From NCBI GenBank assembly GCA_964479725.1, contig CAYZNF010000007.1, positions 1 to 62,539 on the forward strand: 62,539 nucleotides of DNA. Reading direction: 5' to 3'. Below, one piece after another: positions 24,059 through 56,606 of the stretch. The notes below the pieces were generated by a model. That model worked only from the letters and a program-made list of their open reading frames with translations, searched no databases and was not told where the DNA came from. A program made the translations under genes and the position numbers. Each line of letters begins with the position of its first letter. The first letter of the stretch is position 1. Source of the DNA: an uncultured Candidatus Saccharibacteria bacterium. GTDB taxonomy: Bacteria > Patescibacteriota > Minisyncoccia > Minisyncoccales > UBA10102.

Positions 24059-27000
24059 ATGGATGGAAAAAAGACGACCGGAAAATTTGAGGAACTCTAC
24101 GCAAAGCTCAATCCGGAGCAAAAAGAAGCTGTAGATACGATTGAGGGGTCTGTAATGGTTATCGCGGGTCCTGGGACAGGCAAGACCCATGTTTTGACAT
24201 TGCGTATCGCAAAAATACTTCTTGAGGCCGATGTTAATCCGGAAAATATTTTGGCGTTAACATTCACCGATGCCGCGGCATATGAAATGAAGCGGCGTCT
24301 CGGAGAAATTATCGGCGGGTCTGCCGCCCATGGGGTGGAAATTTTTACTTTCCACGCTTTTTGCAACGATATTATACAGCAGAATCCTGAAGATTTTCCT
24401 GAAATTATCGGATCGGTTCCTGTTGGAAACCCCGATCGCGTGCGCTTGGCCAGGGAAATTTTAGAAAAGGGCAAGTTTAGCCTTTTGCGGCCATTTGGCT
24501 CTCCTTTGTATTACGTATATCCTTTGCTAAAAATCGTGAGCGATTTGAAGCGAGAAGGAATCGCGAAGGAGGCTTTTGAAAAAATGGTGCAAAGGCAGGA
24601 AGAGCAATTCCAGGCCAACGACGAATTGTTTTACGCCAACGGCATACGCCAGGGAGAATTAAAGAGCAAATACAAAAGTTTGGAGAGGCAGGTTGCGAAA
24701 AATAAAGAAGTGGCTGTGTTTTATGCTATGTACCAAGAAGCGTTGGCCGCGCACGGGTTTTACGATTATGATGACATGATCTTGAAAGTGGTGGAGCGAC
24801 TTTCTGCGGATGAAGATTTGCTTGTGTCGTTGCAGGAACGTTATCATTATATTCTGGCCGATGAACACCAGGACGTGAACAATGCCCAAAATACGGTTTT
24901 GGAGTTTTTATGCAATTATTCTGACGCGCCAAACCTGTTTATTGTAGGCGATGAAAAGCAGGCGATTTTTCGTTTCCAGGGAGCGTCGCTTGAGAATTTT
25001 TTATATTTCCAAAAAAGGTATCCTAACGCAAAAATTATAAGGCTGTGGCGCAATTATCGGTCTTCCCAAAATATTTTGGACGCCGCTTCCGCGTTGATGG
25101 CGCAGGAAAAAAAGTTTTTGGTTGCCGAAGGCAAAAATGATATTGAGGCAAAGATACGAGTATATGGGCTTTCGAATGAGAGTGAGGAAATGGGCTTTTT
25201 GGCAAATGCCATTAAAGAAAAAATTAGTGGGGGAGCCAGCGCCAAGGAAATTGCGGTGCTGTATAGGGACAATAAAGACGCTGAACCCGTATCCTTTGCT
25301 TTAAAGCGGGCTGGATTGTCGTTTGCGATTGAAGCTGATGAAGAAATTTTGGCTGACGAAGATATTGAAAAAATAATTGACATACTCCAGGCAATTGGCG
25401 ACTTTGGGAATGAAAATTTGCTTATTAAGATATTGCATATAGATTTTCTCAATATTCTGCCATTGGAATTTTATAAGCTTGTGAGGTGGGCGAAGGAACA
25501 GCGCAAAAATTTGTATGATGTTCTTGAGAACGTAGAGAAAATTGACTCTTTGGGTGAAAGTTCAAAGAAAAAAATACATGAGTTGTACGACAAACTTTCG
25601 AGCTGGAGCTCAAAAAGCCATTATACTTCTTTGCTTGAATTGGCGGAAGAAGTCATGCGAGAATCGGGGTTTTTAAAAGAAATGCTTTCCCGCCAAAATT
25701 CACCGCAAAAATTGGCTAAAGCCCGTAGGCTTTTGCATTTCATACAATCCTTGCTTGGGAGACATAGGCAATATAAGCTTTCCGAATTTTTGGAATATTT
25801 ACCCATTTTGAAAGAAGGAGGAATTTCCTTGAAACAAGGGCCATCAGCGCTGGAAGCAAGCGAAGGAGTGCGTTTGATGACAGCGCACAAGTCAAAAGGG
25901 CGCGAGTTTGATTATGTTTTTATTATTAAAGCGAACCAGGGCAAATGGGGAGGCAAGAGAATGCCAAAGCAATTTACTTTGCCCGCTGACACCAGGCTTG
26001 CTTCATCCATGGAGGAAGATGATGAAGAAAGAAAACTGTTTTTTGTGGCGCTTACGAGAGCGAGAAAAGAAGTGATAATTTCTTTTGCAAAAGAGAACGA
26101 TGAGGGAAGAATGCAGCTACCCAGCCGGTTTCTTGAAGAACTGGGGGACGGGATAAAAATAGTAGAAAATGTGCCAACGAAAGCACAATCCGTGAAAGAG
26201 GAGATATTGCTTCGAGATATAAAAGAGCCAAAAAAGCCGCCATTGGAGGACAAGAAATTTTTGAGAGAAACTTTTTTAGGCAAGCCCTTTTCCGCAACGG
26301 CGCTTAATAATTATATTGAATGCCCTTGGAAGTATTTTTATATAAATCTTGTGGGGATTCCTGTTGTACGTACAAAATTCCAGGCGTATGGGACAGCGGT
26401 GCATGAAACTCTCAAGGATTTTTTTGACGCTTTTAAGAAAGATGGCGACACGACAAAAGAATATTTACTGTCGCGTTTCGACAGGCAACTTTCAAAGCAA
26501 ATGCTCAACGAGGAAGACTTTAATCGTCTTGAGGAACGAGGAAAGAAAAGCCTTTCAGGATACTATGATTTTTATTATCCTGTCTGGATTAAAAATACCC
26601 TTAACGAATTTATCATTCCCGAAGTTGCGCTTGATGCGAATACTCAACTGACGGGGAAATTGGACAAGATAGAGATTTTGCCAGATGGCTTGCTGATTAA
26701 CGTGGTGGACTATAAAGCGGCCAAGCCTTTATCCCGCAACCAAATTGAGGGAAGGGTGGGCAACGCAAATGGCCCGCCTAGACTCGCTGGCGAGGCTAGC
26801 GCTTATAAGAGACAGCTCGTGTTTTACAAACTGCTTGTGGACAAATTTTTTGCAGGCAAATATAAAATGGTTTCGGCTGAACTCGATTTTATTGAGCCAA
26901 ATGAAAGGGGATACTACAAAAAAGAGCGGTTTGAAATTACTGCAGGCGAAGTGAAGGAATTGGAGGAATTAATTAAGAAAGTAGTAGGGGAGATCATGAA

Positions 27001-27088
27001 TTTCGCTTTCTGGGATAAATCTTGCGGTGTCAAGGACTGCCAATTCTGTGCTTTGCGGCAAGCAGGAATGCCTCATATTTCCGCTTGA
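24059..27088 (+). CDS. UvrD/Rep SF1 helicase fused to C-terminal PD-(D/E)XK nuclease (AddA/AdnA-like)
   Basis: AGPGTGKT, ILADEHQD, VGDEKQAIFRFQGA, NYRS, MTAHKSKGREF, FFVALTRA; GKLDKIE/VVDYK; CPW...C..CQFC. Confidence 0.93.
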   Translation: MDGKKTTGKFEELYAKLNPEQKEAVDTIEGSVMVIAGPGTGKTHVLTLRIAKILLEADVNPENILALTFTDAAAYEMKRRLGEIIGGSAAHGVEIFTFHAFCNDIIQQNPEDFPEIIGSVPVGNPDRVRLAREILEKGKFSLLRPFGSPLYYVYPLLKIVSDLKREGIAKEAFEKMVQRQEEQFQANDELFYANGIRQGELKSKYKSLERQVAKNKEVAVFYAMYQEALAAHGFYDYDDMILKVVERLSADEDLLVSLQERYHYILADEHQDVNNAQNTVLEFLCNYSDAPNLFIVGDEKQAIFRFQGASLENFLYFQKRYPNAKIIRLWRNYRSSQNILDAASALMAQEKKFLVAEGKNDIEAKIRVYGLSNESEEMGFLANAIKEKISGGASAKEIAVLYRDNKDAEPVSFALKRAGLSFAIEADEEILADEDIEKIIDILQAIGDFGNENLLIKILHIDFLNILPLEFYKLVRWAKEQRKNLYDVLENVEKIDSLGESSKKKIHELYDKLSSWSSKSHYTSLLELAEEVMRESGFLKEMLSRQNSPQKLAKARRLLHFIQSLLGRHRQYKLSEFLEYLPILKEGGISLKQGPSALEASEGVRLMTAHKSKGREFDYVFIIKANQGKWGGKRMPKQFTLPADTRLASSMEEDDEERKLFFVALTRARKEVIISFAKENDEGRMQLPSRFLEELGDGIKIVENVPTKAQSVKEEILLRDIKEPKKPPLEDKKFLRETFLGKPFSATALNNYIECPWKYFYINLVGIPVVRTKFQAYGTAVHETLKDFFDAFKKDGDTTKEYLLSRFDRQLSKQMLNEEDFNRLEERGKKSLSGYYDFYYPVWIKNTLNEFIIPEVALDANTQLTGKLDKIEILPDGLLINVVDYKAAKPLSRNQIEGRVGNANGPPRLAGEASAYKRQLVFYKLLVDKFFAGKYKMVSAELDFIEPNERGYYKKERFEITAGEVKELEELIKKVVGEIMNFAFWDKSCGVKDCQFCALRQAGMPHISA
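26773..26800. repeat. Imperfect GC-rich hairpin inserted in frame in the helicase-nuclease gene
   Basis: CCCGCCTAGACTCGCTGGCGAGGCTAGC encodes PPRLAGEAS just before YKRQLVFY. Confidence 0.6.
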
Positions 27089-27177
27089 CATAGCCCGCAT
27101 ACTGTTTTGTTCGCTCGACAGAGGGAAGGAGTTTTGCTAATGTAAGGGCGATCCGGCAAACGGAGAAGGAGGGAGAG

Positions 27178-28110
27178 ATGCTGATTCTAGTGCTTGGCTT
27201 GCTCGGGATTACGTCAACTGGCTCCCAATTGAGCCAGAAAGTTGTCGTGAGCAGGCTCCCGCTGGGCTTTGCCTTTCTTCTGCAGGCGATCATTGTGTCG
27301 CTTGCGGGGATGGCGATCTCATGGATTTCGGGTGGGCTGCGCTTTGACGCCGCTCTGCTGTGGATTACTGGGTTGGGATTTGTCCACTCTGTGGCTATTT
27401 GGAGCAGGTGGAACGCGTACAAGGACACCCTGGGCGACACGGCGCTGATGCTCCCCATGGGGGCGGCGTTCGGCACCCTGCTCGCCATTTTTGTGGCAGG
27501 GGAGTTCGCGCGATACGCCGAGAAGCCGGTGCTTATTGGCGGATTTGCGCTTATGTTGGTTGCCATGTTCCTGCTGGCACGGGAACGCGACGCCGAAAGG
27601 AAAGGACGTGTTCGCTGGGGACGCAAAGTTGCCATTGCGGTAATCCTGCTTGGGGTTACCGTGGTTGGCATTAAGGTAGCGGCCCTGGGCTTTCATGTGT
27701 CCATGTTGGGCCTTGAAATGGAGCGGTCGCGTATGGCCTTTGGACAGTTCATTCCGTATTTCTCGGCCGGGTATTTGCTCTTTGCGTTCCTGGTGGCCGC
27801 GAAAACGCTCATTTCCCAGGGAGGGTTGCACGGCTTCTTGCCAGCCAAAGGAGCATGGACGGGTGTGGTGATGACGGCATTTGCCGTTTCGGCGGCAGTG
27901 TATGTCTTCACTGCATTTGCCATGTTCTACGCCTTTGGCCAGGGCGCTCTGGTTGTCCTGACTGAAGGCGCGCGAACCCTTCCCTCCACAGTTATTTCGG
28001 TTGTACTGGGGAAGATCCAGTACCGCGAATGGGGCGTCTTGACAAGGCCCAGGATGGCAGCGTTTGCCGCGGGGAGCGTGGGCATACTGCTCCTCGTGGT
28101 TGGACGGTAG
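27178..28110 (+). CDS. ~10-TM membrane protein (DMT/EamA-like), GC-richer than neighbours
   Basis: Hydrophobic throughout; strong GGAGGGAG RBS; TTGACA upstream; own terminator. Confidence 0.7.
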   Translation: MLILVLGLLGITSTGSQLSQKVVVSRLPLGFAFLLQAIIVSLAGMAISWISGGLRFDAALLWITGLGFVHSVAIWSRWNAYKDTLGDTALMLPMGAAFGTLLAIFVAGEFARYAEKPVLIGGFALMLVAMFLLARERDAERKGRVRWGRKVAIAVILLGVTVVGIKVAALGFHVSMLGLEMERSRMAFGQFIPYFSAGYLLFAFLVAAKTLISQGGLHGFLPAKGAWTGVVMTAFAVSAAVYVFTAFAMFYAFGQGALVVLTEGARTLPSTVISVVLGKIQYREWGVLTRPRMAAFAAGSVGILLLVVGR

Positions 28111-28117
28111 GGAGTAT

Positions 28118-28160
28118 GTGCGTGCGGGAGATGGTGCGAAAGCGCCACTCCCGCACGCAC
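28118..28160 (+). terminator. Long hairpin with GAAA tetraloop
   Basis: GTGCGTGCGGGAG-a-TGGTGC-GAAA-GCGCCA-CTCCCGCACGCAC, then TTATTTTT. Confidence 0.75.
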
Positions 28161-28221
28161 GTTATTTTTAAATGGACAGAAACAAAAAAAGCCGTTAGAA
28201 TTACGGGCAGATTACTATACT

Positions 28222-28944
28222 ATGAAACAAACAGAAGAGTTAATCGTAATAGCTTTGGGAGGATCAATTGTTGTGCCTCATCTGTCGGACGACGGGGGAA
28301 TAAATATTGATTTCTTAAAGAGTTTCAGAGATTTTATTATATACGAAATAGGCAAGGGCAAACGATTTGTTTTGATTGTCGGGGGAGGAAAGACAACTCG
28401 TATATACAATAAATCCGCGGCTCAAGTGGTGCCGGTGTCAAATGAGGACTTGGATTGGATTGGCATTCACGCCACCCGTCTCAACGCGCATCTTTTGCGT
28501 ACAATTTTTGCAAAAGAGGCGTATCCCGTTATTATCGACCACGATCCTTCTGTGCGTGAAGTCGCGGCTTTGCGGCGAAAGAAAACAAGCCTCTTTTTGG
28601 CCTCCGGCTGGAAGCCAGGCTGGTCAACCGATTATGTGGCGGTGCGTTTGGCCCAAAAATTTGGCGCAAATACAATGCTGGATGCCGGAGATGTGCCGTT
28701 TGTATACGACAAAGATCCAAAAATACACCAGGACGCAAAGCCAATACGAAAAATTTCCTGGGCAGAATACAGGAAACTTATCCCATCTGAATGGTCTCCT
28801 GGCATGGCAACTCCCATTGATCCCGTTGCTTCAGGGCTAGCTCAAAAAACAAAGCTTACCGTAAAAATGTTCAAAGGAACCGATTTGGCAAATTTCGAAA
28901 ACGCAGTCGAGGGAAAAGAGTTCGAGGGAACGGTAATACAGTAA
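28222..28944 (+). CDS. pyrH: UMP kinase (archaeal-type)
   Basis: IALGGSIV, IVGGGKTTR, IGIHATRLNA, GWKPGWSTD, VYDKDPK, PIDPVA. Confidence 0.92.
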   Translation: MKQTEELIVIALGGSIVVPHLSDDGGINIDFLKSFRDFIIYEIGKGKRFVLIVGGGKTTRIYNKSAAQVVPVSNEDLDWIGIHATRLNAHLLRTIFAKEAYPVIIDHDPSVREVAALRRKKTSLFLASGWKPGWSTDYVAVRLAQKFGANTMLDAGDVPFVYDKDPKIHQDAKPIRKISWAEYRKLIPSEWSPGMATPIDPVASGLAQKTKLTVKMFKGTDLANFENAVEGKEFEGTVIQ

Positions 28945-28991
28945 TTCCCAATGTCTAATAACTAATTAGAAATTGGAAATTAGATATTTTT

Positions 28992-30056
28992 ATGAGCTTA
29001 TCTGTCGGGATTGTTGGGCTTCCTAATGTAGGAAAATCGAGCTTGTTTCGGGCGCTTACGGCAAAGCCGGTTGAAGTTGCCAATTATCCTTTTGCCACAA
29101 TTGACCCTAACGTCGGCGTGGTAAAAATGCCAGATGAAAGATTAGATAAACTGGCCGCTTTTTTCCATTCAAAAAATATTGTGCCTGCTATTGTTGAATT
29201 TGTTGATATAGCGGGGCTTGTGAAAGGGGCGCACGAAGGGGAGGGATTGGGAAATAAATTTTTGACGCATATTCGCGAAGTAGCGGCAATTGTGCATGTT
29301 GTGCGATGTTTTGAAAACCCCGATATTATCCATGTGGAAAATAGGGTAAATCCTCTTGAAGATATTGATACCATAAACACGGAGCTTATTTTGAAAGATA
29401 TTGAAACTTTGGAAAAGCGCTTGGAAACCATACATAAAGATGTGCGCGCGGGAAAAAAAGAAGCCGTTGTCCAAGAACAAGCGTTGGCAGGGTTAAAAGA
29501 ATACTTTAACCAGGGAAAGTTTGCCAGGGAATATTTTGAGCAATTTCCAGAAAGCGCCGAAATACTGAAAGAACTCCAATTTTTAACCGCAAAACCTGTG
29601 ATATTCTTGCTGAACGCCGATACAGAGATCGTGTCAAACAGCCTGAAGCAAAAAATAGAAAGCCAGGGAGCAAGCTATCTAGCCATGAATATCAAAGATG
29701 AAATGGACATGGCCGGGCTTTCTGCCGAGGAGGCAAGAGAGCTTGGTATGGAATCGAAGCTCCCTTTGCTCATTAAAAAAGCGTACGAGATTTTGAATTT
29801 GATTACGTTTTTGACTACCGGGGAAGACGAATCAAGGGCATGGACAATAGCTCGCGGGACAAGCGCTCCGCAAGCGGCGGGAGTTATTCATACGGATTTT
29901 GAAGAAAAATTCATAAAGGCTCTTGTAATTCCCTGGGATAAATTGCTCGAGACTGGGAGCTACGCCGAAGCAGCGTCGCGAGGATGGGTAAGGACAGAAG
30001 GCAGAGAATATATTGTGCAAGACGGCGATGTGATCGAAGTAAAGCACGCTGCATAA
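28992..30056 (+). CDS. ychF: Redox-regulated ATPase YchF
   Basis: GIVGLPNVGKSS, ANYPFATIDPN, VDIAGLVKGA, GLGNKFL, AAGVIHTDF. Confidence 0.97.
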   Translation: MSLSVGIVGLPNVGKSSLFRALTAKPVEVANYPFATIDPNVGVVKMPDERLDKLAAFFHSKNIVPAIVEFVDIAGLVKGAHEGEGLGNKFLTHIREVAAIVHVVRCFENPDIIHVENRVNPLEDIDTINTELILKDIETLEKRLETIHKDVRAGKKEAVVQEQALAGLKEYFNQGKFAREYFEQFPESAEILKELQFLTAKPVIFLLNADTEIVSNSLKQKIESQGASYLAMNIKDEMDMAGLSAEEARELGMESKLPLLIKKAYEILNLITFLTTGEDESRAWTIARGTSAPQAAGVIHTDFEEKFIKALVIPWDKLLETGSYAEAASRGWVRTEGREYIVQDGDVIEVKHAA

Positions 30057-30062
30057 AGCAAA

Positions 30063-30103
30063 CAGGCAACTTAGGGAGCAGGCAACTTAGGGAGACTAAG
30101 TTG
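30063..30103. repeat. 16-bp tandem duplication ending in a REP-like hairpin
   Basis: CAGGCAACTTAGGGAG x2; CAACTTAG-ggaga-CTAAGTTG. Confidence 0.75.
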
Positions 30104-30195
30104 GGCGCAGAATCAAGGCGGGCGGTTGTTTTTTGCTAAAAATTTTGTTTTTGGTAAACTTGAGATGGAATACATATTATGCAGGAGGGTTTGCC

Positions 30196-30375
30196 ATGGC
30201 AGGGGGGATACAATGGAAAATGGCAGTCGAGGGAAAGGAAGGATATTGCCTGTTTTGCAGGGAGCCTATTAATATGGGGCAAGAATATTGTACTTTCCAA
30301 TGCGGGAGCAAGGGGCATAGGATATGCTGCGAGGCGTATCTTGCGCCCTCCATTGCTCTTGCGCCGTCATATTAG
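30196..30375 (+). CDS. Small Cys/His-rich zinc-finger-like protein (59 aa)
   Basis: AGGAGG RBS; CLFC...CTFQC...HRICC. Confidence 0.6.
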   Translation: MAGGIQWKMAVEGKEGYCLFCREPINMGQEYCTFQCGSKGHRICCEAYLAPSIALAPSY

Positions 30376-30445
30376 CACCTTGCTCAAGGGTGTCTGCCTC
30401 ACGGCCGGCACCCTGGCTATTTAAAAGACAGTTAAAAAACAGCCA

Positions 30446-31627
30446 ATGAAATTTTTTGAAATTACAAAACAGAGCAAAAAATCAAAAGCACGGACGGGTA
30501 TTTTGAGGACAAGCCATGGCAAAGTGCTGACCCCTTCTTTTGTGCCTGTAGCTACAAAGGGCACATTGAAGTCTTTGCCGCCAAAAGATATTAAAGAAAT
30601 TGGCGTGCAGATTGCTTTCGTAAACACGTTCCATTTGACCATTTACCCGGGAGTAGATGTTTTAAAAAAGTTTGGAGGGGTGCATAAGTACGCAAAATTG
30701 GATATTCCTTTAATGAGTGACTCTGCAGGATTTCAAGTGTTTTCTTTGGGTCAGGAAAAACCTGGTAAAAAGATAAAGACGCGCGAGGGGGATGAAGCTT
30801 TGCTTTTGGGCATATCGGAAGATGGGGTAAAATTCCGCTCGCCCCGCGATGGCAAAGAAATTCTGTTCAGCCCCGAGTTTTCAATAAAAAACCAGGAAAA
30901 AATAGGAGCAGATATTATGATGGCCTTTGACGAGTGCATTTACGGCACAGCTAGTCATGAATACACGAAATCAGCCACGGAAAGAACGCACCGCTGGCTT
31001 TTGCGATGCATAAAAGAGAAGAGCAAGAAGAAACAATCAGCAACCCGCCTCGACGCGAAGTCTTCGGCGAGGCAGGTCAACAATAAGCAATTTCTGTATG
31101 GGATTGTGCAAGGAGGGAGATTCAAGGATTTGCGGGAAGAGTCGGCAAAATTCGTTTCCGCACAAAATGTGGATGGAGTGGCGATTGGCGGGGTGTCTGT
31201 AGGCGAAACAAAAAAAGAAATGCGAGAGCAGGTAAAATGGACTATGCCTTATTTGCCGCAAGAAAAACCAAGACATCTCCTTGGAGTGGGAAGGGCGGAA
31301 GATATCTTAGATTTAATAAAAGAGGGGATTGATACGTTCGATTGCGTTGAACCGACGCGCTTGGCTCGCAATGGCACTGTTTTTCAGAAGAGGGGAAAAA
31401 GCTTTGTACGCTTGGATATCGGCAAATCAGCATTCCTTAACAATAAGAATCCCATACAAAAGGATTGCCGTTGTTATACCTGCCAAAATTTTTCCTTGTC
31501 GTTTGTCCACCATCTTTTTAAAGAAAGGGAGCTTTTGGGATGTTATCTTGCCACTTATCACAATCTGCATTTTTTCAGCCAGTTTTTCATCTCTCTTCGA
31601 AAAGACATCGAAAGGGGAGTGTTGTAA
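30446..31627 (+). CDS. tgt: tRNA-guanine transglycosylase
   Basis: TPSFVPVATKG, NTFHL, SDSAGFQVFSL, MAFDEC, YGIVQGG, PRHLLGVG, FDCVEPTR, DCRCYTC. Confidence 0.96.
   Translation: MKFFEITKQSKKSKARTGILRTSHGKVLTPSFVPVATKGTLKSLPPKDIKEIGVQIAFVNTFHLTIYPGVDVLKKFGGVHKYAKLDIPLMSDSAGFQVFSLGQEKPGKKIKTREGDEALLLGISEDGVKFRSPRDGKEILFSPEFSIKNQEKIGADIMMAFDECIYGTASHEYTKSATERTHRWLLRCIKEKSKKKQSATRLDAKSSARQVNNKQFLYGIVQGGRFKDLREESAKFVSAQNVDGVAIGGVSVGETKKEMREQVKWTMPYLPQEKPRHLLGVGRAEDILDLIKEGIDTFDCVEPTRLARNGTVFQKRGKSFVRLDIGKSAFLNNKNPIQKDCRCYTCQNFSLSFVHHLFKERELLGCYLATYHNLHFFSQFFISLRKDIERGVL
31043..31077. repeat. GC-rich hairpin inserted in frame in tgt
   Basis: ACCCGCCTCGACGCGAAGTCTTCGGCGAGGCAGGT encodes TRLDAKSSARQV before QFLYGIVQGG. 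Confidence 0.75.
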
Positions 31628-31631
31628 TTTC

Positions 31632-31670
31632 AGCTATGCTAAATTTACACGATCGTGGATTTTTTGTATA
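31632..31670. repeat. CACGATCGTG-core imperfect palindrome (copy 1), overlapping the promoter of the PaaX-like gene
   Basis: AGCTATGCTAAATTTACACGATCGTGGATTTTTTGTATA. Confidence 0.75.
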
Positions 31671-31677
31671 ATGAAGT

Positions 31678-32223
31678 ATGGATGAATATGCGAGGAAAAA
31701 ATTATTAGCACTGTTATTTGCTGGTATGGCGCTAGGATTTTCTTATACTCCCCAGCGTCGTCAAAAAATTTATAGCTCCACAAAGAGATATTTAAAGTAT
31801 CTTGACGAGCGTAAATTAAAAAACGAGATTCGAAAAATGTATCGTACCAAACTTATAAGATATAAAGAGAATTCCGACAAATCTATTACGCTTATATTAA
31901 CGGATAAGGGTAAAATGAAAGCGTTGACGTATCGCTTTGAGGAGATGACTATTTATCCTCCCAAAAAATGGGATGGCAAGTGGAGGATTGTCATCTTTGA
32001 CATTCCAGAAAAATTAAGGCAGGGGAGAGACGCTCTTCGCACTAAACTTATTCAAATTGGTTTCCTGGAATTCCAAAAAAGTGTTTTTGTTTTTCCGTAC
32101 CCATGCGAAAATGAACTAGACTTTATTATCGAATTTTTTAATCTCCGTCCCTATGTAAGAGTGGGTATATTGGAAAACATTGATAATGCAGCCGATCTTA
32201 AACATAAGTTCGATCTTCCTTAG
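31678..32223 (+). CDS. PaaX-family wHTH plus Cas2-like ferredoxin-fold protein
   Basis: LILTDKGK wing; KWDGKWRIVIFDIPE...RDALR..L...GF...QKSVFV.PY; no CRISPR array nearby. Confidence 0.88.
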   Translation: MDEYARKKLLALLFAGMALGFSYTPQRRQKIYSSTKRYLKYLDERKLKNEIRKMYRTKLIRYKENSDKSITLILTDKGKMKALTYRFEEMTIYPPKKWDGKWRIVIFDIPEKLRQGRDALRTKLIQIGFLEFQKSVFVFPYPCENELDFIIEFFNLRPYVRVGILENIDNAADLKHKFDLP

Positions 32224-32240
32224 AAGATATCTGATTATAA

Positions 32241-32292
32241 AATTTAGCTATACATAAAAGCCACGATCGTGGCTTTTATGTATAGCTAAATT
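32241..32292. repeat. Perfect 52-bp palindrome with CACGATCGTG core (copy 2)
   Basis: AATTTAGCTATACATAAAAGCCACGA|TCGTGGCTTTTATGTATAGCTAAATT. Confidence 0.92.
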
Positions 32293-32352
32293 GAAGATGG
32301 ACGCTTGCGTTGCCCATTGAATATTTTGGGAATTTGGGTATATAATGCGCCA

Positions 32353-33099
32353 ATGAAGATTACAGAGGTAAAAACAAGCAAGATTACAGACCAGAATCAT
32401 GATATCCTGGAGGTTTTGGATGCCTATTTGCCGCGGCTTCAAGAAGGCACGGTTGTCGCTGTAACTTCAAAAATTGTGTCTATTTGTGAAGGAAGAATGG
32501 TGCCATTCAGAAGCAAGGAAGAGAAAGATGAGATTATCAAAAAAGAAGCTGACTATTATCTTCCCAGTGAAATAAATAAATATCACGTTTGGCTCACCAT
32601 AAAAAACAGTATTATCATTTTTTCTTCGGGAGTAGATGAATCGAATGGAAACGGGTATTTAGTGCTCTGGCCATCTGATCCTCAAAAATGGGCAAATACC
32701 ATTCGAGAGCATTTGGCAAAAAAGCATAGCCTGCAAAAAATAGGCGTAATTATAACGGATACTAGCAGTATGCCGCTGCGGCGGGGGCAAAAAGGCATTG
32801 TCCTTGCGCACAGCGGTTTTTATGCGCTTAACGACTATGTCGGCAAGCCGGATATTTTCGGCAGGGTGCTGAAAATAACAAAAGCGGCTGTTGCGGATGC
32901 ATTGGCAACCGCGTCTGTGCTAGTTATGGGCGAGGGGAATGAGCAAACTCCTCTCGCGCTAGTCGAGGATATTCCTTTTGTGCAATTCCAGGGCAGGAAC
33001 CCTACCCAGGAGGAATTGGCAGAACTTCGCATTGCCATTGAAGACGACTTGTTCGGCGAAATGGTTTCGGGAGTAAGGTGGGAAAAGGGTGGAATATGA
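32353..33099 (+). CDS. Coenzyme F420-0:L-glutamate ligase-like (CofE family)
   Basis: VAVTSKIVSICEG, SGVDESN, GVIITDT...PLRRG, VADALA, VMGEGNEQTP. Confidence 0.85.
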   Translation: MKITEVKTSKITDQNHDILEVLDAYLPRLQEGTVVAVTSKIVSICEGRMVPFRSKEEKDEIIKKEADYYLPSEINKYHVWLTIKNSIIIFSSGVDESNGNGYLVLWPSDPQKWANTIREHLAKKHSLQKIGVIITDTSSMPLRRGQKGIVLAHSGFYALNDYVGKPDIFGRVLKITKAAVADALATASVLVMGEGNEQTPLALVEDIPFVQFQGRNPTQEELAELRIAIEDDLFGEMVSGVRWEKGGI

Positions 33100-33509
33100 A
33101 ACGTGTTTTGGTTTTTGGCATATTCGACGGCATCCATGATGGCCACCGCCATTTTTTTAAAGAGGCGAGGGTTTTTGGCGATGAGCTTGTGGTTGTTGTG
33201 GGGCGCGACGATATTGCCAAAGTCTTAAAAGGAAAAATTCCAAGAAAGTCCGAAGAACAGCGAATCCGCGACTTGAAAGCAGAAACTCTGGTTGATTTGG
33301 CAGTGCTTGGGGATGAACAGCTTTCCACCTATAAAGTTGTGGAGGATTTGCAGCCTCATGTGATTTGTTTGGGGTACGACCAGGAAGCTTTTGAGAGGGA
33401 TTTGAGGGCTTGGATCGAGGCAAACAACCCTTCCATTGAAGTAAACATTCTTTCTGCACTCAAACCAGACGAACTCCATTCTTCGATTTTATACGGGAAA
33501 AACGGGTAA
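33096..33509 (+). CDS. Cytidylyltransferase-like nucleotidyltransferase (archaeal FAD synthase RibL-like)
   Basis: FGIFDGIHDGH, VVVVGRD, AVLGD, ICLGYDQ, HSS. Confidence 0.85.
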   Translation: MKRVLVFGIFDGIHDGHRHFFKEARVFGDELVVVVGRDDIAKVLKGKIPRKSEEQRIRDLKAETLVDLAVLGDEQLSTYKVVEDLQPHVICLGYDQEAFERDLRAWIEANNPSIEVNILSALKPDELHSSILYGKNG

Positions 33510-33553
33510 AAACCATTTACAAAACCCTCTTTTAAAGGTATTATGTATACGGC

Positions 33554-34288
33554 ATGCATATCAGCTTAAAGCCAGAAATTATCGGGTATTTTCTCGGGTT
33601 GCCAATTGCCAACAGCCTTATTTTGTCGTTGATAGTAACTCTTTTGCTGGTTGGCCTTGCTATTCTAGCGGTAAAATCGTTGAAAATGGCGCCGGGTAAA
33701 ATTCAGAATAGCGCGGAATCTCTTATTGAGACTCTTTTGGATTTTATGGCCAACGCCTTGGGAGACCGGAAACAAGCAATGCAATTTTTTCCGTTGGTTG
33801 CATCGTTTTTTTTGATTATTTTGTTCAACAACTGGGTGGGCGTGATGCCGGGGGTGGGATCCATTATGCTTGAGGGATCCCACGCGGAACGCTTTCCTTT
33901 GTTCCGCGCGGCAAACAGTGATTTAAATACAACGCTTGCCTTGGCGTTTGTTTCCGTCATTGCCATACAATGGTACGGTGTGCGAAAATTCGGATTTTTC
34001 GGGCATTTTTCAAAATTCTTTGTTTTTACCAAAGGGCCCATACAGCTTTTTGTGGGTTTGCTGGAGTTGGTGGGGGAGTTGGCGAAAGTGCTTTCGTTTT
34101 CTTTTAGGTTGTTCGGGAATGTTTTCGCGGGAGAGGTCTTGCTGGTTACCATTATGACTCTTGTGCCTATTATCGCGCCTTTGCCTTTCTTTTTGCTCGA
34201 ATTTTTTGTAGGATTCATTCAGGCGCTGGTATTTTCCATGCTTACTTTGGTGTTTTTAAAAATTGCGACCGAAACAGCCGAACACTAA
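33554..34288 (+). CDS. atpB: ATP synthase Fo subunit a
   Basis: FRAANSDLNTT, LSFSFRLFGNVFAGE, FIQALVF. Confidence 0.96.
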   Translation: MHISLKPEIIGYFLGLPIANSLILSLIVTLLLVGLAILAVKSLKMAPGKIQNSAESLIETLLDFMANALGDRKQAMQFFPLVASFFLIILFNNWVGVMPGVGSIMLEGSHAERFPLFRAANSDLNTTLALAFVSVIAIQWYGVRKFGFFGHFSKFFVFTKGPIQLFVGLLELVGELAKVLSFSFRLFGNVFAGEVLLVTIMTLVPIIAPLPFFLLEFFVGFIQALVFSMLTLVFLKIATETAEH

Positions 34289-34363
34289 TTTTTTTCTTCC
34301 TTGGGTTTAAAAAAGCTCAAGGAAGGGAAAAATTCCCAAAGGTCCTTTCGAATTCTCAATTAA

Positions 34364-34600
<237 letters not shown>

Positions 34601-34701
34601 CGAAAGCGATGTCTATAGATACTTACCCCGCCTTGCGGGCCGATATTTCTCGACTCATTCGCAGGCGGGGGGAGTAAATAGCCAGTAATATTACGGATTA
34701 A

Positions 34702-35593: not shown

Positions 35594-35595
35594 CA

Positions 35596-35707
35596 AATTG
35601 CTAATTGCTAATTGCTAATTGCTAATTGCTGATTGTTTATTGAGATAACGTATGCGGTTACAATCGACAATCGACAATCAACAATTAACAATTATCTATC
35701 AGCAATT
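35596..35707. repeat. Heptamer tandem repeats forming an inverted pair
   Basis: (AATTGCT)x5 at 35596-35630; degenerate inverse ACAATCG/ACAATTA/AGCAATT at 35660-35707. Confidence 0.8.
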
Positions 35708-35713
35708 AATTCT

Positions 35714-37258: not shown

Positions 37259-37291
37259 AATCATCAAGCTGTTGCAACTTCATAAAGAAAT

Positions 37292-38257: not shown

Positions 38258-38264
38258 CAAAATC

Positions 38265-39727
<1,463 letters not shown>

Positions 39728-39735
39728 GCATTACT

Positions 39736-51612: not shown

Positions 51613-51633
51613 CCATAGTTAATTTTATATTCT

Positions 51634-51672
51634 GGCTATGCAGAAATTGGACGATCGTGAGTTTTTTGTATA
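51634..51672. repeat. CACGATCGTG-family repeat (copy 4), solo, one core mismatch
   Basis: GGCTATGCAGAAATTGGACGATCGTGAGTTTTTTGTATA. Confidence 0.7.
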
Positions 51673-51708
51673 TCTAAAAAACAGTAATTTTGGCGCTAAT
51701 TAGACATA

Positions 51709-52137
51709 ATGAAAGCGATACTTTTCGATTTGTTTGGAGTGGTGGTGATTCCTGAAAGGGGATTGGGTACATCAAAAGATTTAAAGATTGATGGACGGAT
51801 GAGTGAAAAAATTCAAGAGTTAAAAGCAGCAGGTGTGCAATGCTATGCCGCTACTAATTTGGAAAAATCTGTTGTTGATTATCTTGCAGAAGAAAAAGGA
51901 TTGAAAAAACTTTTCGACGGGATTTTTTCTTCTTCGTCGGTGGGATATTCAAAAAGCGATCCCAAATTTTTTGAGACTGTTTTGGCGCTAATTGGCAATC
52001 CGCTCCCAGAAGAAGTGCTGTTTTGGGATGATTCTATTGAGAATGTGGAGATAGCAAGAAGCCTGGGCATTAAGGCGGAACTTTATACAAGTTTCGATGA
52101 TTTTCAAAAGAAAATGAAAGAACTCGCAAGTTCTTAG
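51709..52137 (+). CDS. HAD-superfamily hydrolase (cap-less)
   Basis: ILFDLFGV, ATN, SKSDPKFF, FWDDSIENV. Confidence 0.85.
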   Translation: MKAILFDLFGVVVIPERGLGTSKDLKIDGRMSEKIQELKAAGVQCYAATNLEKSVVDYLAEEKGLKKLFDGIFSSSSVGYSKSDPKFFETVLALIGNPLPEEVLFWDDSIENVEIARSLGIKAELYTSFDDFQKKMKELASS

Positions 52138-52167
52138 TGTTTGATACTCGCGTAGTGAAATGGAACA

Positions 52168-52680
52168 ATGTCAAAAAAAATACTGTTGAATGTAAAACCT
52201 TTTCAAGAAACTCTTCATGGAGGGTATTGCGGGCCGGCAAGCTTGAAAATTGTGCTGGCGTATTTTAGCGTGGAAAAGAGCGAAGAAGAAATTGCGGAAT
52301 TGTGCGGAAGAGATTCTGAATTGGGAACGGATGACGCAGGATTGAAAAACGCGGCGGAGCATTATGGATTTAAGGTAGAAATAAAAAATAATGCTGAATT
52401 TGCGGATATTGAAGAATGGCTGAAAAGAAAAGTGCCTGTCATTGTAGATTGGTTTACGAGAGGTCGTTCTGATTATTCTGATTCTGAAGTTGCAGATGGC
52501 CACTATTCTGTCGTTGCAGGATTAGATGATGAAAATATTTATCTCCAAGATCCTGAAATAGGCGGGATGCGGGTTATAGATCGTGATGATTTTATGAAAG
52601 TTTGGTTTGATTTCAGTGGCAAATATATTACTTCGTGGGACGATATGATTATCCGCCAAATTATTGCGGTTTATAAATGA
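52168..52680 (+). CDS. Peptidase C39-like cysteine protease
   Basis: FQET...YCGPASL, PVIVDW, GHYSVV, LQDP. Confidence 0.85.
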   Translation: MSKKILLNVKPFQETLHGGYCGPASLKIVLAYFSVEKSEEEIAELCGRDSELGTDDAGLKNAAEHYGFKVEIKNNAEFADIEEWLKRKVPVIVDWFTRGRSDYSDSEVADGHYSVVAGLDDENIYLQDPEIGGMRVIDRDDFMKVWFDFSGKYITSWDDMIIRQIIAVYK

Positions 52681-52681
52681 T

Positions 52682-52900
52682 ATGGATTTGCCATTCGGAG
52701 TTTATGAACACTATAAAGGAAAGCGATATCGGGTGATTGGAGTGGCAAAGCATAGTGAAATGCTAGAGGATCTTGTGGTGTATGAAGCCCTCTACGAAAA
52801 TCCTAAATCAAAGCTTTGGGTAAGGCCTCTCGAAATGTTTTTGGCGGAAGTTGATGTTGCGGGGAAAAGGACTCCTCGATTTAGCTATATTGGATCATAA
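52682..52900 (+). CDS. DUF1653 family protein
   Basis: GVYEHYKGKRY.VIGVAKHSE...VVYEALY...WVRPLEMF. Confidence 0.9.
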   Translation: MDLPFGVYEHYKGKRYRVIGVAKHSEMLEDLVVYEALYENPKSKLWVRPLEMFLAEVDVAGKRTPRFSYIGS

Positions 52901-52967
52901 GAAGCAGGCTAGAAAATTTGCCATTTCTCAAGTATAGTAAAAAGAAAGTATGTTACCCTGGTAATGT

Positions 52968-53663
52968 ATGGATAATCCCATTCTGTCAGTCAAAAATCTT
53001 AGTGTACAATTTAATGGAGAGAAAATACTGTCCGACATTGCTTTTTCTTTAGAAAAAGGAATGGCAATGGCTATTGTAGGACCCAATGGAGCCGGGAAAA
53101 GCGTTTTATTTAAGGCTCTTTTGGGATTGATTCCTTATTCGGGGGAAATTGTCTGGCAAAAAGGAATTAAAGTAGGCTATGTGCCCCAGCGACTCGCGGT
53201 AGATCATGAACTTCCCCTAAGCGTGCGTGAGTTTTTGCGGTTGAAAGGAAACGAAAAAGAAATACAGGAAGCTCTTTCGTTGGTAGACATTCATGACGCT
53301 TTATTGCTTAATCGTCCTTTTGGATTTTTGTCGGGAGGAGAGATTCAAAGAGTACTGGTGGCCTGGGCGATTATTGGAAACCCCGATGTATTATTGTTTG
53401 ATGAGCCGGTTGCCGGAATTGATTTGGGCGGGGAGGAAACAATTTATAATCTTATGTTTCGTTTGCACACCGAAAGAGGTCTTACTTTGTTGCTTATTTC
53501 CCACGATATCGATATTGTGTATCGTTATACCGATACAGTGCTTTGCTTAAATAAGATTCCCGTGTGTTTTGGCAAACCCGAAGAAGCTCTGACGGCCGAG
53601 AGCCTGGGAAAACTGTATGGAGCTGCGGCATTAGTCCGCCATCAGCATCGCAAAAATGCATAA
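52968..53663 (+). CDS. znuC: Zn/Mn ABC transporter ATPase
   Basis: GPNGAGKS, GYVPQ, LSGGE, LLFDEP, ISHD, His-containing tail. Confidence 0.88.
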   Translation: MDNPILSVKNLSVQFNGEKILSDIAFSLEKGMAMAIVGPNGAGKSVLFKALLGLIPYSGEIVWQKGIKVGYVPQRLAVDHELPLSVREFLRLKGNEKEIQEALSLVDIHDALLLNRPFGFLSGGEIQRVLVAWAIIGNPDVLLFDEPVAGIDLGGEETIYNLMFRLHTERGLTLLLISHDIDIVYRYTDTVLCLNKIPVCFGKPEEALTAESLGKLYGAAALVRHQHRKNA

Positions 53664-53671
53664 TTATTTAT

Positions 53672-54457
53672 ATGATTTCTTTTGATCAAACATTATTGCT
53701 TGCATTAGCATCCGGAAGTTTTATTGGAGCTGCGGCAGGGTATCTTGGGTCTTTTATGGTATTGAGGCGCATGGCTTTGGTGGGGGATGCGCTTTCTCAT
53801 GTGGCTCTGCCTGGAATAGCAATTGCTTTGCTGCTCGAGATCAATCCCTTTATAGGGGCGTTCCTGTTTTTATTTGTAGCGGCGCTAGCTATATGGGGCA
53901 TTGAAGAAAAAACGAAACTGCCTACCGAAGCTTTAGTCGGAGTTTTTTTTACGCTAAGCCTAGCCATTGGAGTGCTTATAACCCCTGAACCCGAGCTCCT
54001 GGAAGCTTTGTTTGGCAACATCGAAGGGGTGGGAATCTTTGACGCGCTTATGGGAATTGTCCTTGCAATAACAGTTTTTGCAATTGCGTACTTGATTAAA
54101 AAGGGGTTATTGCTGGGAATAGTTTCACGCGATTTGGCGGAGTCATCTCGTATCCCGACAAGGCTTATCAATTTGATTTTTCTGCTTTTGGTAACCACTG
54201 TGGTGGCGTTGGGGGTGAAGGTAGTTGGAACTCTTCTTATGGGAGCTATGGTAGTGGTGCCGGCTGTCGCAGCAAAAAACTTTTCCCATCAGTTTGGAGC
54301 TTTTTCTTTTTTGAGTGTTTTATTTGGAACAGCAAGCGTGGTCGGCGGGATCATTCTTGCTAACTTGTACAATCTTTCTCCTGGTCCCGTTATTGTATTA
54401 GTTTCGGTAATGTTTTTTGTGATATCTCTTATTGCACGGCTCGTTCGCAAAGGCTAA
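53672..54457 (+). CDS. znuB: Zn/Mn ABC transporter permease
   Basis: RRMALVGDALSHVALPG, LFGNI, KVVGTLL, PGPVIV. Confidence 0.9.
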   Translation: MISFDQTLLLALASGSFIGAAAGYLGSFMVLRRMALVGDALSHVALPGIAIALLLEINPFIGAFLFLFVAALAIWGIEEKTKLPTEALVGVFFTLSLAIGVLITPEPELLEALFGNIEGVGIFDALMGIVLAITVFAIAYLIKKGLLLGIVSRDLAESSRIPTRLINLIFLLLVTTVVALGVKVVGTLLMGAMVVVPAVAAKNFSHQFGAFSFLSVLFGTASVVGGIILANLYNLSPGPVIVLVSVMFFVISLIARLVRKG

Positions 54458-54461
54458 TAAT

Positions 54462-56606
54462 ATGGCAAACGAAAATCTTAAAGTTTTATATACCTGTCCT
54501 ATGCACCCCGAAGTTATGCAGGATAGGCCTGGGATGTGCCCAGAATGCGGAATGCAGCTCGTGAAACATACAGCGCACAGCGCGAAACACGAAACGCAAG
54601 ATAAATCCTCCTTCGCTAAAGCTTCGGCGGGTAAACATGCAGGACATTCTACGGCAATGTTTTTTAGAAAATTCTGGGTAAGTTTCATTTTGACTGTTCC
54701 GGTTATTCTCTATTCTGATATTTTTCGAAATCTATTTGGTTTTGGTCTTCCGACCCTGGAAATCGGAAATTTGAAATTGGAAATTATGATCCCGGCTATG
54801 CTGGGTTCAATAGTTTTTTTCTATGGCGGCTGGGTTTTTCTCGCTGGAGCATGGAGAGAAATTCAAGGCAAATTGCCTGGCATGATGACTCTCATTGGCA
54901 TTGCGGTTACCTCTGCATATCTTTGGAGCGTCTATGCGGTATTTACAGGCGCTGAAGCTTTGTTTTGGGAACTCACGACTTTGGTTACCATCATGCTGCT
55001 TGGCCATTGGCTGGAGATGCGGGCTGTTTCAGGAGCTCAAGGTGCGCTAAAGGAATTATCAAAATTGCTTCCGGATACCGCCGAACTGATTCGCAATGGA
55101 CAGACACAAATCATCCCTCTTTCTGAGCTTCGAGAGAATGACGTCGTGCTCGTGCGGCCGGGAGCAAAAATACCAGCCGACGGAAAAATCGTAGACGGGG
55201 ATTCGGATGTAAACGAATCAATGATAACAGGGGAGTCAAGGCCGGTTTCAAAAAAAACAGGCGATTCTGTTATTGCCGGCACCATCAACGGCGACGGAGC
55301 GCTTAAAATTAAAGTTGTCAGCATCGGAGAAAAAACATTTCTTTCGGGCGTCATGCGTTTGGTAGCCGAAGCCCAAGCATCAAAATCACGCCTTCAAATG
55401 CTTTCAGATAGAGCAGCTTTTTATTTAACCATTATTGCAGTTGTGGGAGGTTTTGTAACGTTGGTTGCATGGATTCTAGCTGATTCAGAGTTTAGTTTTG
55501 CGGTAGCTCGTCTTGTTGCTGTGCTTGTTATTGCTTGTCCGCATGCCTTGGGCCTTGCAATACCTCTGGTGGCTTCGATTTCTACAACCAAAGCTGCGCA
55601 AAACGGTTTCCTTGTAAAACAAAGACTTAGTTTGGAGGCTGCACGAACTATTGATACGGTGCTTTTTGACAAAACCGGAACTTTAACAAAAGGAGAATTC
55701 GGAGTTGTTGGGATGTGGGGTGTGCAGGGGCACAAGGAAGAGGAAGTCTTAAGGCTTGCAGCTTCTCTTGATACTTTGTCTGAACACCCTATTGCAAAAG
55801 CTGTTGTTGGTAAGGCTAAGGAATTAGGGTTTACTCTTTTGAGTCCTAAAAAATTTGAGGCAATCAAAGGTAGGGGGGTCAAAGCTCTGCTTGAAGATAG
55901 GGAGGTTATGGCGGGAGGGCCAGCGCTTCTTGAAAACGAAAATATTGCTATTCCCCAAGAGCTTTTGGGGCGAGTTCAGGATGCTGGCAAAAAAGGGCAA
56001 ACTGTTGTTTTCGTCTTGCAAGAAAAAACACTCATAGGCATGATTGCTCTCGCTGACATAATCAGAGAAGAATCTCGTGAAGCAGTGAAGGCATTGAAGG
56101 ATATGGGTGTCCGTACCGCAATGATCACCGGAGACTCTGAAGATGTTGCGAAATGGGTCAGCCATGAATTGGGGATTGATGAATACTTTGCAAGAGTATT
56201 GCCTCATCAAAAATCAGAAAAGGTGAAGGAGCTCCAAGAGAGAGGCCTGCGTGTGGCTATGGTGGGGGATGGTATCAACGATGCGCCGGCCCTTACTCGA
56301 GCTGATCTTGGAATTGCCATTGGAGCTGGCACGAATATCGCTATTGAATCGGCCGGAATTATCTTAGTCCGCAATGATCCTCGGGATATCGTAAAAATTG
56401 TTAAGCTGTCTCGCATGACGTATTCAAAAATGATCCAAAATCTATTCTGGGCGACCGGCTACAATATTATTGCATTGCCTTTGGCGGCAGGCGCTCTTGT
56501 ATTTAAAGGCATTCTGCTTGAACCGGCTGTTGCAGCCGGCCTAATGTCGGTTAGCACGGTTATCGTGGCAGTGAACGCGCTTTTGCTTCGAAAATCCCGA
56601 CTCTAA
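54462..56606 (+). CDS. copB: P1B-3 (CopB-type) heavy-metal P-type ATPase with N-terminal HMBD
   Basis: YTCPMHP...CPECGM, TGES, CPHALG, DKTGTLT, SEHP, GDGINDAPAL, YN, MSVST. Confidence 0.92.
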   Translation: MANENLKVLYTCPMHPEVMQDRPGMCPECGMQLVKHTAHSAKHETQDKSSFAKASAGKHAGHSTAMFFRKFWVSFILTVPVILYSDIFRNLFGFGLPTLEIGNLKLEIMIPAMLGSIVFFYGGWVFLAGAWREIQGKLPGMMTLIGIAVTSAYLWSVYAVFTGAEALFWELTTLVTIMLLGHWLEMRAVSGAQGALKELSKLLPDTAELIRNGQTQIIPLSELRENDVVLVRPGAKIPADGKIVDGDSDVNESMITGESRPVSKKTGDSVIAGTINGDGALKIKVVSIGEKTFLSGVMRLVAEAQASKSRLQMLSDRAAFYLTIIAVVGGFVTLVAWILADSEFSFAVARLVAVLVIACPHALGLAIPLVASISTTKAAQNGFLVKQRLSLEAARTIDTVLFDKTGTLTKGEFGVVGMWGVQGHKEEEVLRLAASLDTLSEHPIAKAVVGKAKELGFTLLSPKKFEAIKGRGVKALLEDREVMAGGPALLENENIAIPQELLGRVQDAGKKGQTVVFVLQEKTLIGMIALADIIREESREAVKALKDMGVRTAMITGDSEDVAKWVSHELGIDEYFARVLPHQKSEKVKELQERGLRVAMVGDGINDAPALTRADLGIAIGAGTNIAIESAGIILVRNDPRDIVKIVKLSRMTYSKMIQNLFWATGYNIIALPLAAGALVFKGILLEPAVAAGLMSVSTVIVAVNALLLRKSRL
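54606..54631. repeat. Palindromic mini-element in frame in copB
   Basis: TCCTCCTTCGCTAAAGCTTCGGCGGG encodes SSFAKASAG; 17-nt exact match (54615-54631) to 42361-42377. Confidence 0.8.

Follow-up and report, generated by a model that had tools for sequence, protein, structure and literature searches.

The window, that is, the whole 62,539-nt stretch of contig CAYZNF010000007.1 analyzed here, belongs to Candidatus Wildermuthbacteria and has a GC content of 43.7%. Almost all of its genes lie on the plus strand according to Pfam mapping, and its tgt, helicase, and copB genes have their nearest homologs in Candidatus Wildermuthbacteria and other Parcubacteria. A first-pass annotation of this DNA had reported out-of-place peptides encoded by GC-rich hairpins within four genes, and all four peptides were confirmed in the sequence. 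The segments encoding them, all on the plus strand, are referred to as E1 (helicase-nuclease), E2 (tgt), E3 (atpG), and E4 (copB). E1 (26774-26800) is a 27-nt GC-rich insert encoding PPRLAGEAS in frame within the PD-(D/E)xK nuclease domain of a UvrD-type helicase-nuclease (open reading frame, ORF, 24050-27088), where it directly precedes the conserved YKRQL nuclease motif. E2 (31043-31078) is a 36-nt in-frame hairpin that places TRLDAKSSARQV in a loop of tgt (ORF 30446-31627) known from the alignments to be hypervariable, and E3 (37954-37977) is a 21- to 24-nt GC-rich insert that encodes (Q)PASPADG in frame in a variable loop of atpG (ORF 37292-38257). E4 (54603-54632; TCCTCCTTCGCTAAAGCTTCGGCGGG), about 30 nt long, encodes (K)SSFAKASAG in the copper P-type ATPase gene copB (ORF 54432-56606) and is a decayed copy of a hairpin family, called family i below. 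A fifth in-frame case was found at 12609-12638.

In-frame GC-rich insertions in genes of the window

Judging from ortholog alignments, each of the four segments is an insertion. All appear as extra segments, of 27, 36, 21 to 24, and about 30 nt, respectively, which upholds the out-of-place status given to them by the first-pass annotation, and every insert length is a multiple of three. The 9-aa insert of E1 was missing in 60 of the 60 best homologs, the nearest of which is only 53% identical. E2 corresponds to a 12-aa insert: two orthologs (P0007 and P0009) have KKKQSA-INDQQFLYG, compared to KKKQSA-TRLDAKSSARQV-NNKQFLYG in the window, others (P0002, P0005, and P0017 among them) have no insert at all at this site, and in further relatives different inserts of the GC type occupy this loop and others. 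A tgt query against the genome collection found no close relative; the top match was 55% identical and the loci, mostly from Firmicutes, serve as background only. E3 adds 7 or 8 residues relative to the syntenic orthologs in three related loci (L081, L082, and L086), and PASPADG was missing in 56 representative gamma subunits, which are very variable at this point of the loop. Finally, the E4 site lies in the linker of CopB, between HEGHD and KHAGHS, that joins the N-terminal metal-binding domain to the first membrane helix. About half of 60 copB orthologs have no insert there, and the rest have related or degenerate peptides that form a graded series (SAFAKATAD, SAFIKDTAG, STSLSAG, PDKAMAG, and others), a pattern that fits either an insertion of old age or a site that was hit more than once. 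The copB gene of another genome (L084) carries an intact hairpin at this site, TCCGCCTTCGCTAAAGCTACGGCGGA, encoding KSAFAKATAD; E4 is the same sequence with its stem broken.

The GC content of E1, E2, and E3 is 0.70, 0.69, and 0.75, compared to 42% in the host genes, and exceeds the 99th percentile of 30-nt windows; that of E4 is 53%. Each segment was folded as single-stranded DNA and compared to 200 shuffles of the same composition to give a z score. Among the four, E2 alone folds clearly better than the shuffles (z = -2.7), so the description of the segments as hairpins holds only in part: E1 has a 9-bp interrupted stem but an ordinary z score (-0.66), E3 has a 5-bp stem alone (z = -0.63) and is no real hairpin, and E4 forms no hairpin in this genome (z = +0.55). 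On the complementary strand of E3, a CGTC adjoins the 5-bp stem.

In an AlphaFold model of the TGT protein (mean predicted local distance difference test score, pLDDT, 83.7), residues 202 to 212 are a loop with a pLDDT of less than 50, flanked by a helix (residues 171 to 201) and a strand (residues 216 to 221). The E2 insert thus lies in a predicted disordered loop of TGT, in line with the earlier proposal that such elements create new protein loops, and the CopB insert lies in an interdomain linker.

Some of these sequences recur elsewhere. For instance, the E3 core (37955-37977; CCTGCCTCGCCGGCAGACGGGTC) is identical at 23 of 23 positions to a sequence of another genome (L084, 14719-14741), where it lies in the same frame (PASPADGS) within a thioredoxin-like ORF. 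Alignment of this ORF to the thioredoxin domain of Synechococcus VKOR ends at the insert. This identity means that E3 is either recent or constrained. E2 and E3, read on opposite strands, have the 13-nt sequence ACCTGCCTCGCCG in common, and the 5′ arm of E1 (CCCGCCTAGACTCG) is similar to that of E2 (CCCGCCTCGAC(G/T)CG); on these grounds E1 to E3 were loosely grouped as family ii.

Of the coding hairpins in the window, the fifth case, placed in a family iii, is the strongest (z = -7.45). It is a 30-nt perfect palindrome on the plus strand (TCCGCCAGAGGCGGATCCGCCTCTGGCGGA; 12609-12638) that encodes SARGGSASGG in frame within a bifunctional PGI-type SIS-domain gene (ORF 11910-12914), with a GC content of 0.77 compared to 0.43 in the gene. 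Alignment of the gene product to PDB entry 1tzb ends exactly at this insert, and the palindrome recurs twice in each of two other low-GC contigs (L125 and L092). In viral contigs, exact and near-exact patterns of E1, E2, E3, and this palindrome gave no matches. A permissive E2-type pattern was discarded, its matches in viral contigs being attributed to chance in GC-rich DNA.

Related loci contain comparable inserts. In one (L085), tgt carries at ~1090-1140 a 51-nt in-frame double hairpin (RDAAPLMRGEPRPEGRG; -37.6 kcal/mol) with a GC content of 0.71 compared to 0.40, and in another (L086) a cytidylyltransferase gene (15121-15552) carries a 33-nt in-frame hairpin at residue 29 (CCTGTCCACCCCTGGGGTGGACAGG). 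Twelve syntenic genes of the window and four related loci were surveyed for internal inserts of at least 5 aa present in no more than half of the genomes. All five real cases were GC-rich repeats or hairpins, namely, E2, E3, an insert in atpD of L081, a repeat-type insert in tgt of L086, and the L086 hairpin; the remaining three listed items were start-codon artifacts.

Family i, a 24-nt hairpin across genomes

E4 and three hairpins of an intergenic array match a 24-nt hairpin, CCGCCTYCGCTRAAGCTWCGGCGG, which defines family i. The array (42087-42500, plus strand, as are all its hairpins) consists of two tandem units of ~220 nt, A and B, that are 81% identical, each with four GC-stemmed hairpins (H1, H2, and two longer ones), and as a whole it folds with a z score of -7.8. 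Unit A opens with H1a (42087-42118; z = -3.2), a family-i variant that begins 8 nt past the stop codon of a DUF5665 gene, and unit B opens with an exact copy of it, H1b (42317-42348), as part of an exact 43-nt copy of the H1a region at 42317. The second hairpin of unit A, H2A (42121-42159; z = -2.4), has GCCCGC/GCGGGC arms and an enlarged loop and can be aligned with H2B (42351-42378; GCCCGCTTTTGCTAAAGCTTCGGCGGGC), a family-i copy that is identical at 30 of 32 positions to copies in four other contigs (L200, L143, L168, and L136). H2B also contains the 17-mer GCTAAAGCTTCGGCGGG, which is shared exactly between copB (54615-54631) and the array (42361-42377), as the first-pass annotation had noted. 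It had also listed as related the two H1 hairpins and a GC-rich hairpin between atpE and atpF (34626-34670, plus strand; CCCCGCCT...AGGCGGGG; z = -2.7), and these proved real. The atpE-atpF spacer is ~100 nt long in the window; in L081 and L082 it measures 15 to 17 nt and has no hairpin.

H1 and H2 count as family-i copies. For the other two stems of each unit, the third and fourth, no match was found in 2.2 Mb of loci, which together with the viral contigs formed the sample searched for second copies. No Rfam family matched the array; none of the Rfam 15 covariance models reached its gathering score in the window, and the region 40780-42570 gave only chance-level matches. No tRNA genes were found in the window. 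The array, called an RNA array in the first-pass annotation and a candidate for an RNA function, is read as a cluster of hairpin repeats resembling bacterial interspersed mosaic elements (BIMEs). The earlier idea that the hairpins terminate the array blocks found no support, as there was one weak terminator-like match and such sites were not above the level of shuffles.

The sequence GCTTCGGCGGG, with up to one mismatch, occurs 7 times in the window compared to 0.83 times expected, a count reached by none of 100 shuffles; no enrichment was seen for the motif CCCGCCT by itself (11 compared to 7.7 expected). A profile built from metagenome copies only scored E4 at 30.8 bits (E = 3e-8), H2B at 20.4 bits (E = 5.6e-5), and both H1 hairpins at 16.5 bits (E = 1e-3), and it did not match E1, E2, or E3. 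The earlier view of a single family shared with the array therefore stands only in part: recurrent GC-rich families are shared with the array, but there are at least three sequence families, and E1 to E3 fall outside the family-i profile.

Family i extends far beyond this genome. Its strict pattern, CCGCCTYCGCTN{0,6}RAAGCTWCGGCGG, for which fewer than one chance match was estimated from its information content, was found in at least 120 metagenome stretches with GC contents of 0.32 to 0.72 and unrelated flanks, as well as in 16 viral contigs. Together with the copies in related loci, these matches bear out the recurrence expected of a repeat. In contigs of less than 48% GC, about 19 of 46 copies, among the matches listed, are located within open frames that span 190 codons or more. 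The in-frame host genes include atpD, dnaE, ileS, gltX, prfA, grpE, tig, and queA, and 10 hosts were confirmed by Pfam (DnaE, a class-I aminoacyl-tRNA synthetase, GrpE, PEP synthase, a release factor, GltX, RNase HII, a MiaB-like enzyme, QueA, and trigger factor). One case is atpD of the Wildermuthbacteria contig L081, in which CCGCCTCCGCTGAAGCTACGGCGG encodes TPASAEATAGK in frame, a 9-aa insert missing in atpD of the window and of L082. Likewise, one of the atpG representatives (P0389) has SASAKATADK in the same loop that holds E3 in the window.

Two of the six reading frames of the family-i core contain stop codons, and the intragenic copies fall mostly into two Ala-rich frames. All 19 of the 19 were stop-free, 12 in frame +3 (ASAEATAGK type), 6 in frame -3 (AEALAKAG type), and 1 in frame -2. 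Deleting the element from apparently intergenic copies never restored a long gene. Because only stop-free frames are occupied and deletion restores no gene, the intragenic copies are frame preserving and presumably translated.

The edges of the element were examined in 115 copies. In family i, an outer stem of 6 bp is combined with a 3x3 internal loop and an inner GC stem. First, a pyrimidine invariably precedes the core and in 85 to 93% of copies pairs with the base that follows the core, and the pairing ends within one base outside the stem. Second, nothing is conserved upstream beyond position -1, and downstream a tail of R-Y-A-A-G (+1 to +5) is conserved. Third, direct repeats of at least 3 nt flank only 1 of 44 low-GC and 0 of 71 high-GC copies. 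This means that the element is asymmetric, with no target-site duplication and no terminal inverted repeat past the hairpin. Finally, neither GTAG nor CGTC tags the ends of family i; GTAG occurs internal to the hairpin, in the W=A variants only. The sequences CAAC, GAGCAA, and TAAA around E2, E3, and E4 were considered as target-site duplications and rejected, since the flank profile of the 115 copies has no duplication.

Four of the ~30 intergenic low-GC copies (L136, 551-574; L168, 2835-2863; L159, 1564-1587; and L108, 1758-1781) lie a few bases from, or overlap by ~4 nt, the ends of tRNA genes (Ser and Gly). The window also holds other intergenic hairpins. A separate family at 31626-31670, 32240-32288, 40864-40908, and 51628-51672 consists of a palindrome, CACGATCGTG, followed by a T-run and GTATA; at 32245-32288 its copy forms a perfect palindrome of 44 nt (-30.5 kcal/mol), and the family possibly represents shared terminators or operator sites. 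Two more GC hairpins, at 28117-28160 and 41060-41098 (-39.1 and -33.0 kcal/mol in 44-nt windows), are unrelated in sequence to families i to iii.

Origin of the segments and competing explanations

We favor, with a probability of roughly 60%, the explanation that the segments are intact or decayed copies of several very short, GC-rich, non-autonomous repeat families resembling repetitive extragenic palindromic (REP) sequences. At least two of the four segments have counterparts from the same repeat family in other bacteria, the same sequences being found again in unrelated genes and genomes, and the intragenic copies are filtered for frame and stop codons. The repeats, ~21 to 36 nt long and mostly palindromic, would land between genes, singly or clustered as in the array at 42.1 to 42.5 kb, and within genes, where only copies that are in frame and stop-free would survive. 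The survivors would occupy tolerant surface loops or linkers and be translated as small Ala/Ser/Gly/Pro-rich loops. Their spread would be transposition-like rather than due to another copying process. The lack of a target-site duplication and of inverted repeats past the hairpin, the sharp 5′ edge, and the R-Y-A-A-G 3′ tail are most compatible with a single-strand, hairpin-recognizing mechanism of the HUH type, for which the transposase-like gene of the window, described below, is not an evident partner.

Several observations weigh against this explanation. No second copy of E1 was found in the search sample, and E2 had just one 17-nt partial match elsewhere, in a high-GC contig. E1, E3, and E4 fold no better than shuffles, and what is conserved in them is the sequence instead of a hairpin; E4 may go back to a single old insertion that several orthologs inherited, not to repeated hits. 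The copy density in Wildermuthbacteria DNA is low, with a handful of copies in ~140 kb. Exact 24-mers are common to contigs of 32 to 72% GC, unlike ordinary REPs, which are species-specific; this identity across contigs may reflect functional constraint or a source of another kind. Finally, no movement was seen between two assemblies, which differ by 7 single-nucleotide polymorphisms (SNPs) and by no gain or loss of an element.

The second assembly, GCA_016188315.1, is public and from the same organism. It covers 21389-41245 of the window with 7 mismatches and no indels, and it is 100% identical to 51821-62539 except for one 52-nt indel. All four elements are present in it, with no presence/absence difference, and E4 is decayed and shared with copB orthologs, so the earlier description of an active family was not borne out. 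Two of the 7 SNPs fall within GC-rich hairpins, at 31055 (E2) and at 23300 (hairpin 23274-23304), which make up 0.3% of the compared sequence, a hint that mutation or sequencing error may be elevated in them. Five of the 7 are A/C differences. Contig L343 of this assembly ends at window position 41245, beside the start of a small glutaredoxin-like ORF (ATG at 41252), ~150 nt beyond the hairpins at 41060-41164 and 840 nt before the hairpin array, and nearby repeats may cause the break. The indel is a 52-nt segment (60153-60204) within a sigma-70 family gene (59774-60283) that is missing in contig L344, where the gene is truncated; it is not a repeat element and may reflect either variation between strains or a fault of assembly.

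A more specific version, proposed by the first-pass annotation, is that the elements are REPs mobilized by a REP-associated tyrosine transposase (RAYT), a Y1 transposase of the HUH type. Their size, imperfect palindromes, BIME-like clustering, and lack of target-site duplication all fit REPs, intragenic REPs have been reported (PMC3733652), and the window does contain a RAYT-like gene (46402-47124) that matches Pfam Y1_Tnp (PF01797; 28.4 bits compared to a cutoff of 23) and has the HYH and Tyr motifs. However, its match to the NCBIfam REP_Tyr_transpos model, 25 bits, is far below the cutoff of 80, and it is flanked by AT-rich, GTAG-tagged hairpins of its own, GTAGTAAGGTTTAACCTTAC, which lie upstream in 2.5 tandem copies (46323-46376), at the stop codon (47119-47139), and 220 nt downstream (47338-47364) and were found nowhere else in the window. 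A RAYT gene flanked by GTAG-tagged REPs is the classical arrangement (PMC3733652, PMC2817692), and by this layout 46300-47364 is a predicted REP-RAYT unit in a genome of the candidate phyla radiation (CPR). Since its REPs are rich in AT and have no sequence relation to the GC-rich elements, the gene gives no support for mobilization of the latter. Moreover, family i has neither of the terminal tags, no homolog of the RAYT-like protein was found among 3,638 ORFs next to ~140 family-i copies, and identity across phyla is atypical of REPs. Taken together, mobilization by a RAYT seems unlikely.

A second alternative is that a nucleic-acid signal, such as a protein-binding site, a hairpin for RNA stability, processing, or termination, or a ribosome pause, keeps the sequence and that the peptide is a by-product. 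The exact 24-mers over such a wide range of GC content, the asymmetric conserved 3′ tail, the four intergenic copies that directly adjoin tRNA genes, the position of H1 just past a stop codon, and the strong structure of the array are all in its favor. Nevertheless, we give it little weight, because the intragenic copies decay (the stem of E4 is lost, and copB orthologs carry graded degenerate peptides), a T-run is not consistently present and terminator-like sites do not exceed shuffles, and the host genes and positions are unrelated.

Third, the segments may have arisen in place, with hypervariable loops growing by slippage or template switching and GC palindromes forming locally without a mobile source. 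This would account for the hypervariable length of all four sites among orthologs, for the uniqueness of E1 in the sample, and for the unremarkable hairpin z scores of E1, E3, and E4. It is difficult to reconcile with the presence of the E3 sequence, identical at 23 of 23 positions, in the unrelated thioredoxin-like gene of L084 and with the near identity of family i in more than 15 unrelated host genes, and both arms of E1 are new sequence rather than copies of the flanks; we regard an origin in place as improbable. Last, the inserts could be cut from the mRNA or skipped by the ribosome on the model of the bypass elements of Magnusiomyces mitochondria, as GC-rich, hairpin-like inserts in AT-rich coding sequence and the position of E1 beside a catalytic motif might suggest, but this is highly implausible given that all intragenic copies are in frame and stop-free (19/19 in family i), that deletion of an element never restores a broken gene, and that all insert lengths are multiples of three.

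The small repeat families favored above also allow a bolder statement, namely, that micro-elements of ~24 to 31 nt, without terminal repeats, target duplication, a GTAG/CGTC tag, or a linked transposase, spread across distant phyla by an unrecognized mechanism and are the main source of new loops in housekeeping proteins of CPR bacteria. We offer this only tentatively and think it rather doubtful.

Three observations concern other features of the region. A 523-aa ORF without a Pfam match (13251-14822) contains five Cys-rich repeats with a spacing of 150 to 162 nt. Two tandem paralogous pilin-like genes (17326-19013), each with an N-terminal methylation motif and a Laminin_G_3 domain, are 76% identical over 176 nt. 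In the related Wildermuthbacteria genome L082, a diversity-generating retroelement with bAvd and reverse transcriptase genes (5427-6830) lies ~3 kb upstream of tgt.

Relation to known repeats and significance

The literature searched gave no description of these elements. The nearest known kinds are intragenic REPs and the palindromic elements of Rickettsia, and the elements differ in one or more respects from each known kind of small repeat. Rickettsia palindromic elements (RPEs) are ~100 to 150 bp long. In-frame palindromic repeats are known from these elements, which are restricted to Rickettsia and have CGTC ends (PMC3733652). As with RPEs, the palindromic repeats described here lie in frame in many unrelated, apparently functional genes, add peptide segments, and also occur between genes; unlike RPEs, they are 21 to 36 nt long and are found in a CPR genome, with family i common to very different bacteria.

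REPs and BIMEs are 20- to 40-nt GC-rich imperfect palindromes, single or clustered, that are mostly intergenic and sometimes intragenic (PMC2817692, PMC3733652, PMC8266576, PMC3116915). They have a conserved GTAG or CGTC tetranucleotide at one end, the CGTC class has no dedicated transposase, and REPs within known genes have been reported in several species (PMC3733652). The elements of the window are likewise short imperfect palindromes, as is apparent for E2, H1, H2A, and the 12609 palindrome (z scores of -2.4 to -7.5), though not for E1, E3, and E4. However, they have neither the terminal tag nor a RAYT gene flanked by them, ~40% of the low-GC copies are intragenic, the core is identical over contigs of 32 to 72% GC, and the copy density is low. 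REPs typically exceed 100 copies per genome; the 62.5 kb of this genome covered here, together with the near-identical second assembly, hold ~10 copies of all families.

[quoted passage not shown] The elements studied here are also non-autonomous, overlap ORFs, and change the protein sequence, but they are far smaller, and terminal inverted repeats and direct repeats were not found. In mitochondria, the GC clusters of yeast, including the optional clusters in VAR1, are short GC-rich palindromes that are occasionally coding, and repetitive hairpin-forming elements and coding palindromes are reportedly present in the mitochondria of sponges (PMC2800124) and of Nematomorpha (PMC6649704), respectively. 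Such clusters resemble the present elements in being short GC-rich palindromes in an AT-richer genome that occasionally lie in coding sequence and are translated; however, they are organellar and their sequences are unrelated, which leaves an analogy only.

Compared to these known kinds, what would be new is the combination of a size far below that of RPEs and MITEs, the lack of a GTAG/CGTC tag and of a cognate RAYT, a CPR host, and a family-i core found across bacteria. The presence of this 24-nt core in contigs of 32 to 72% GC poses the question of how so short a sequence spreads or persists across phyla. If the favored explanation is right, small selfish repeats would add new loops to essential proteins. 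CPR genomes are small and streamlined, yet all sizeable lineage-specific inserts in conserved genes of one syntenic block of five genomes are GC-rich repeats. If this is true genome-wide, micro-repeats would be a source of error for the annotation, alignment, and phylogeny of CPR genes, and they would be a main route to new surface loops in CPR proteins.

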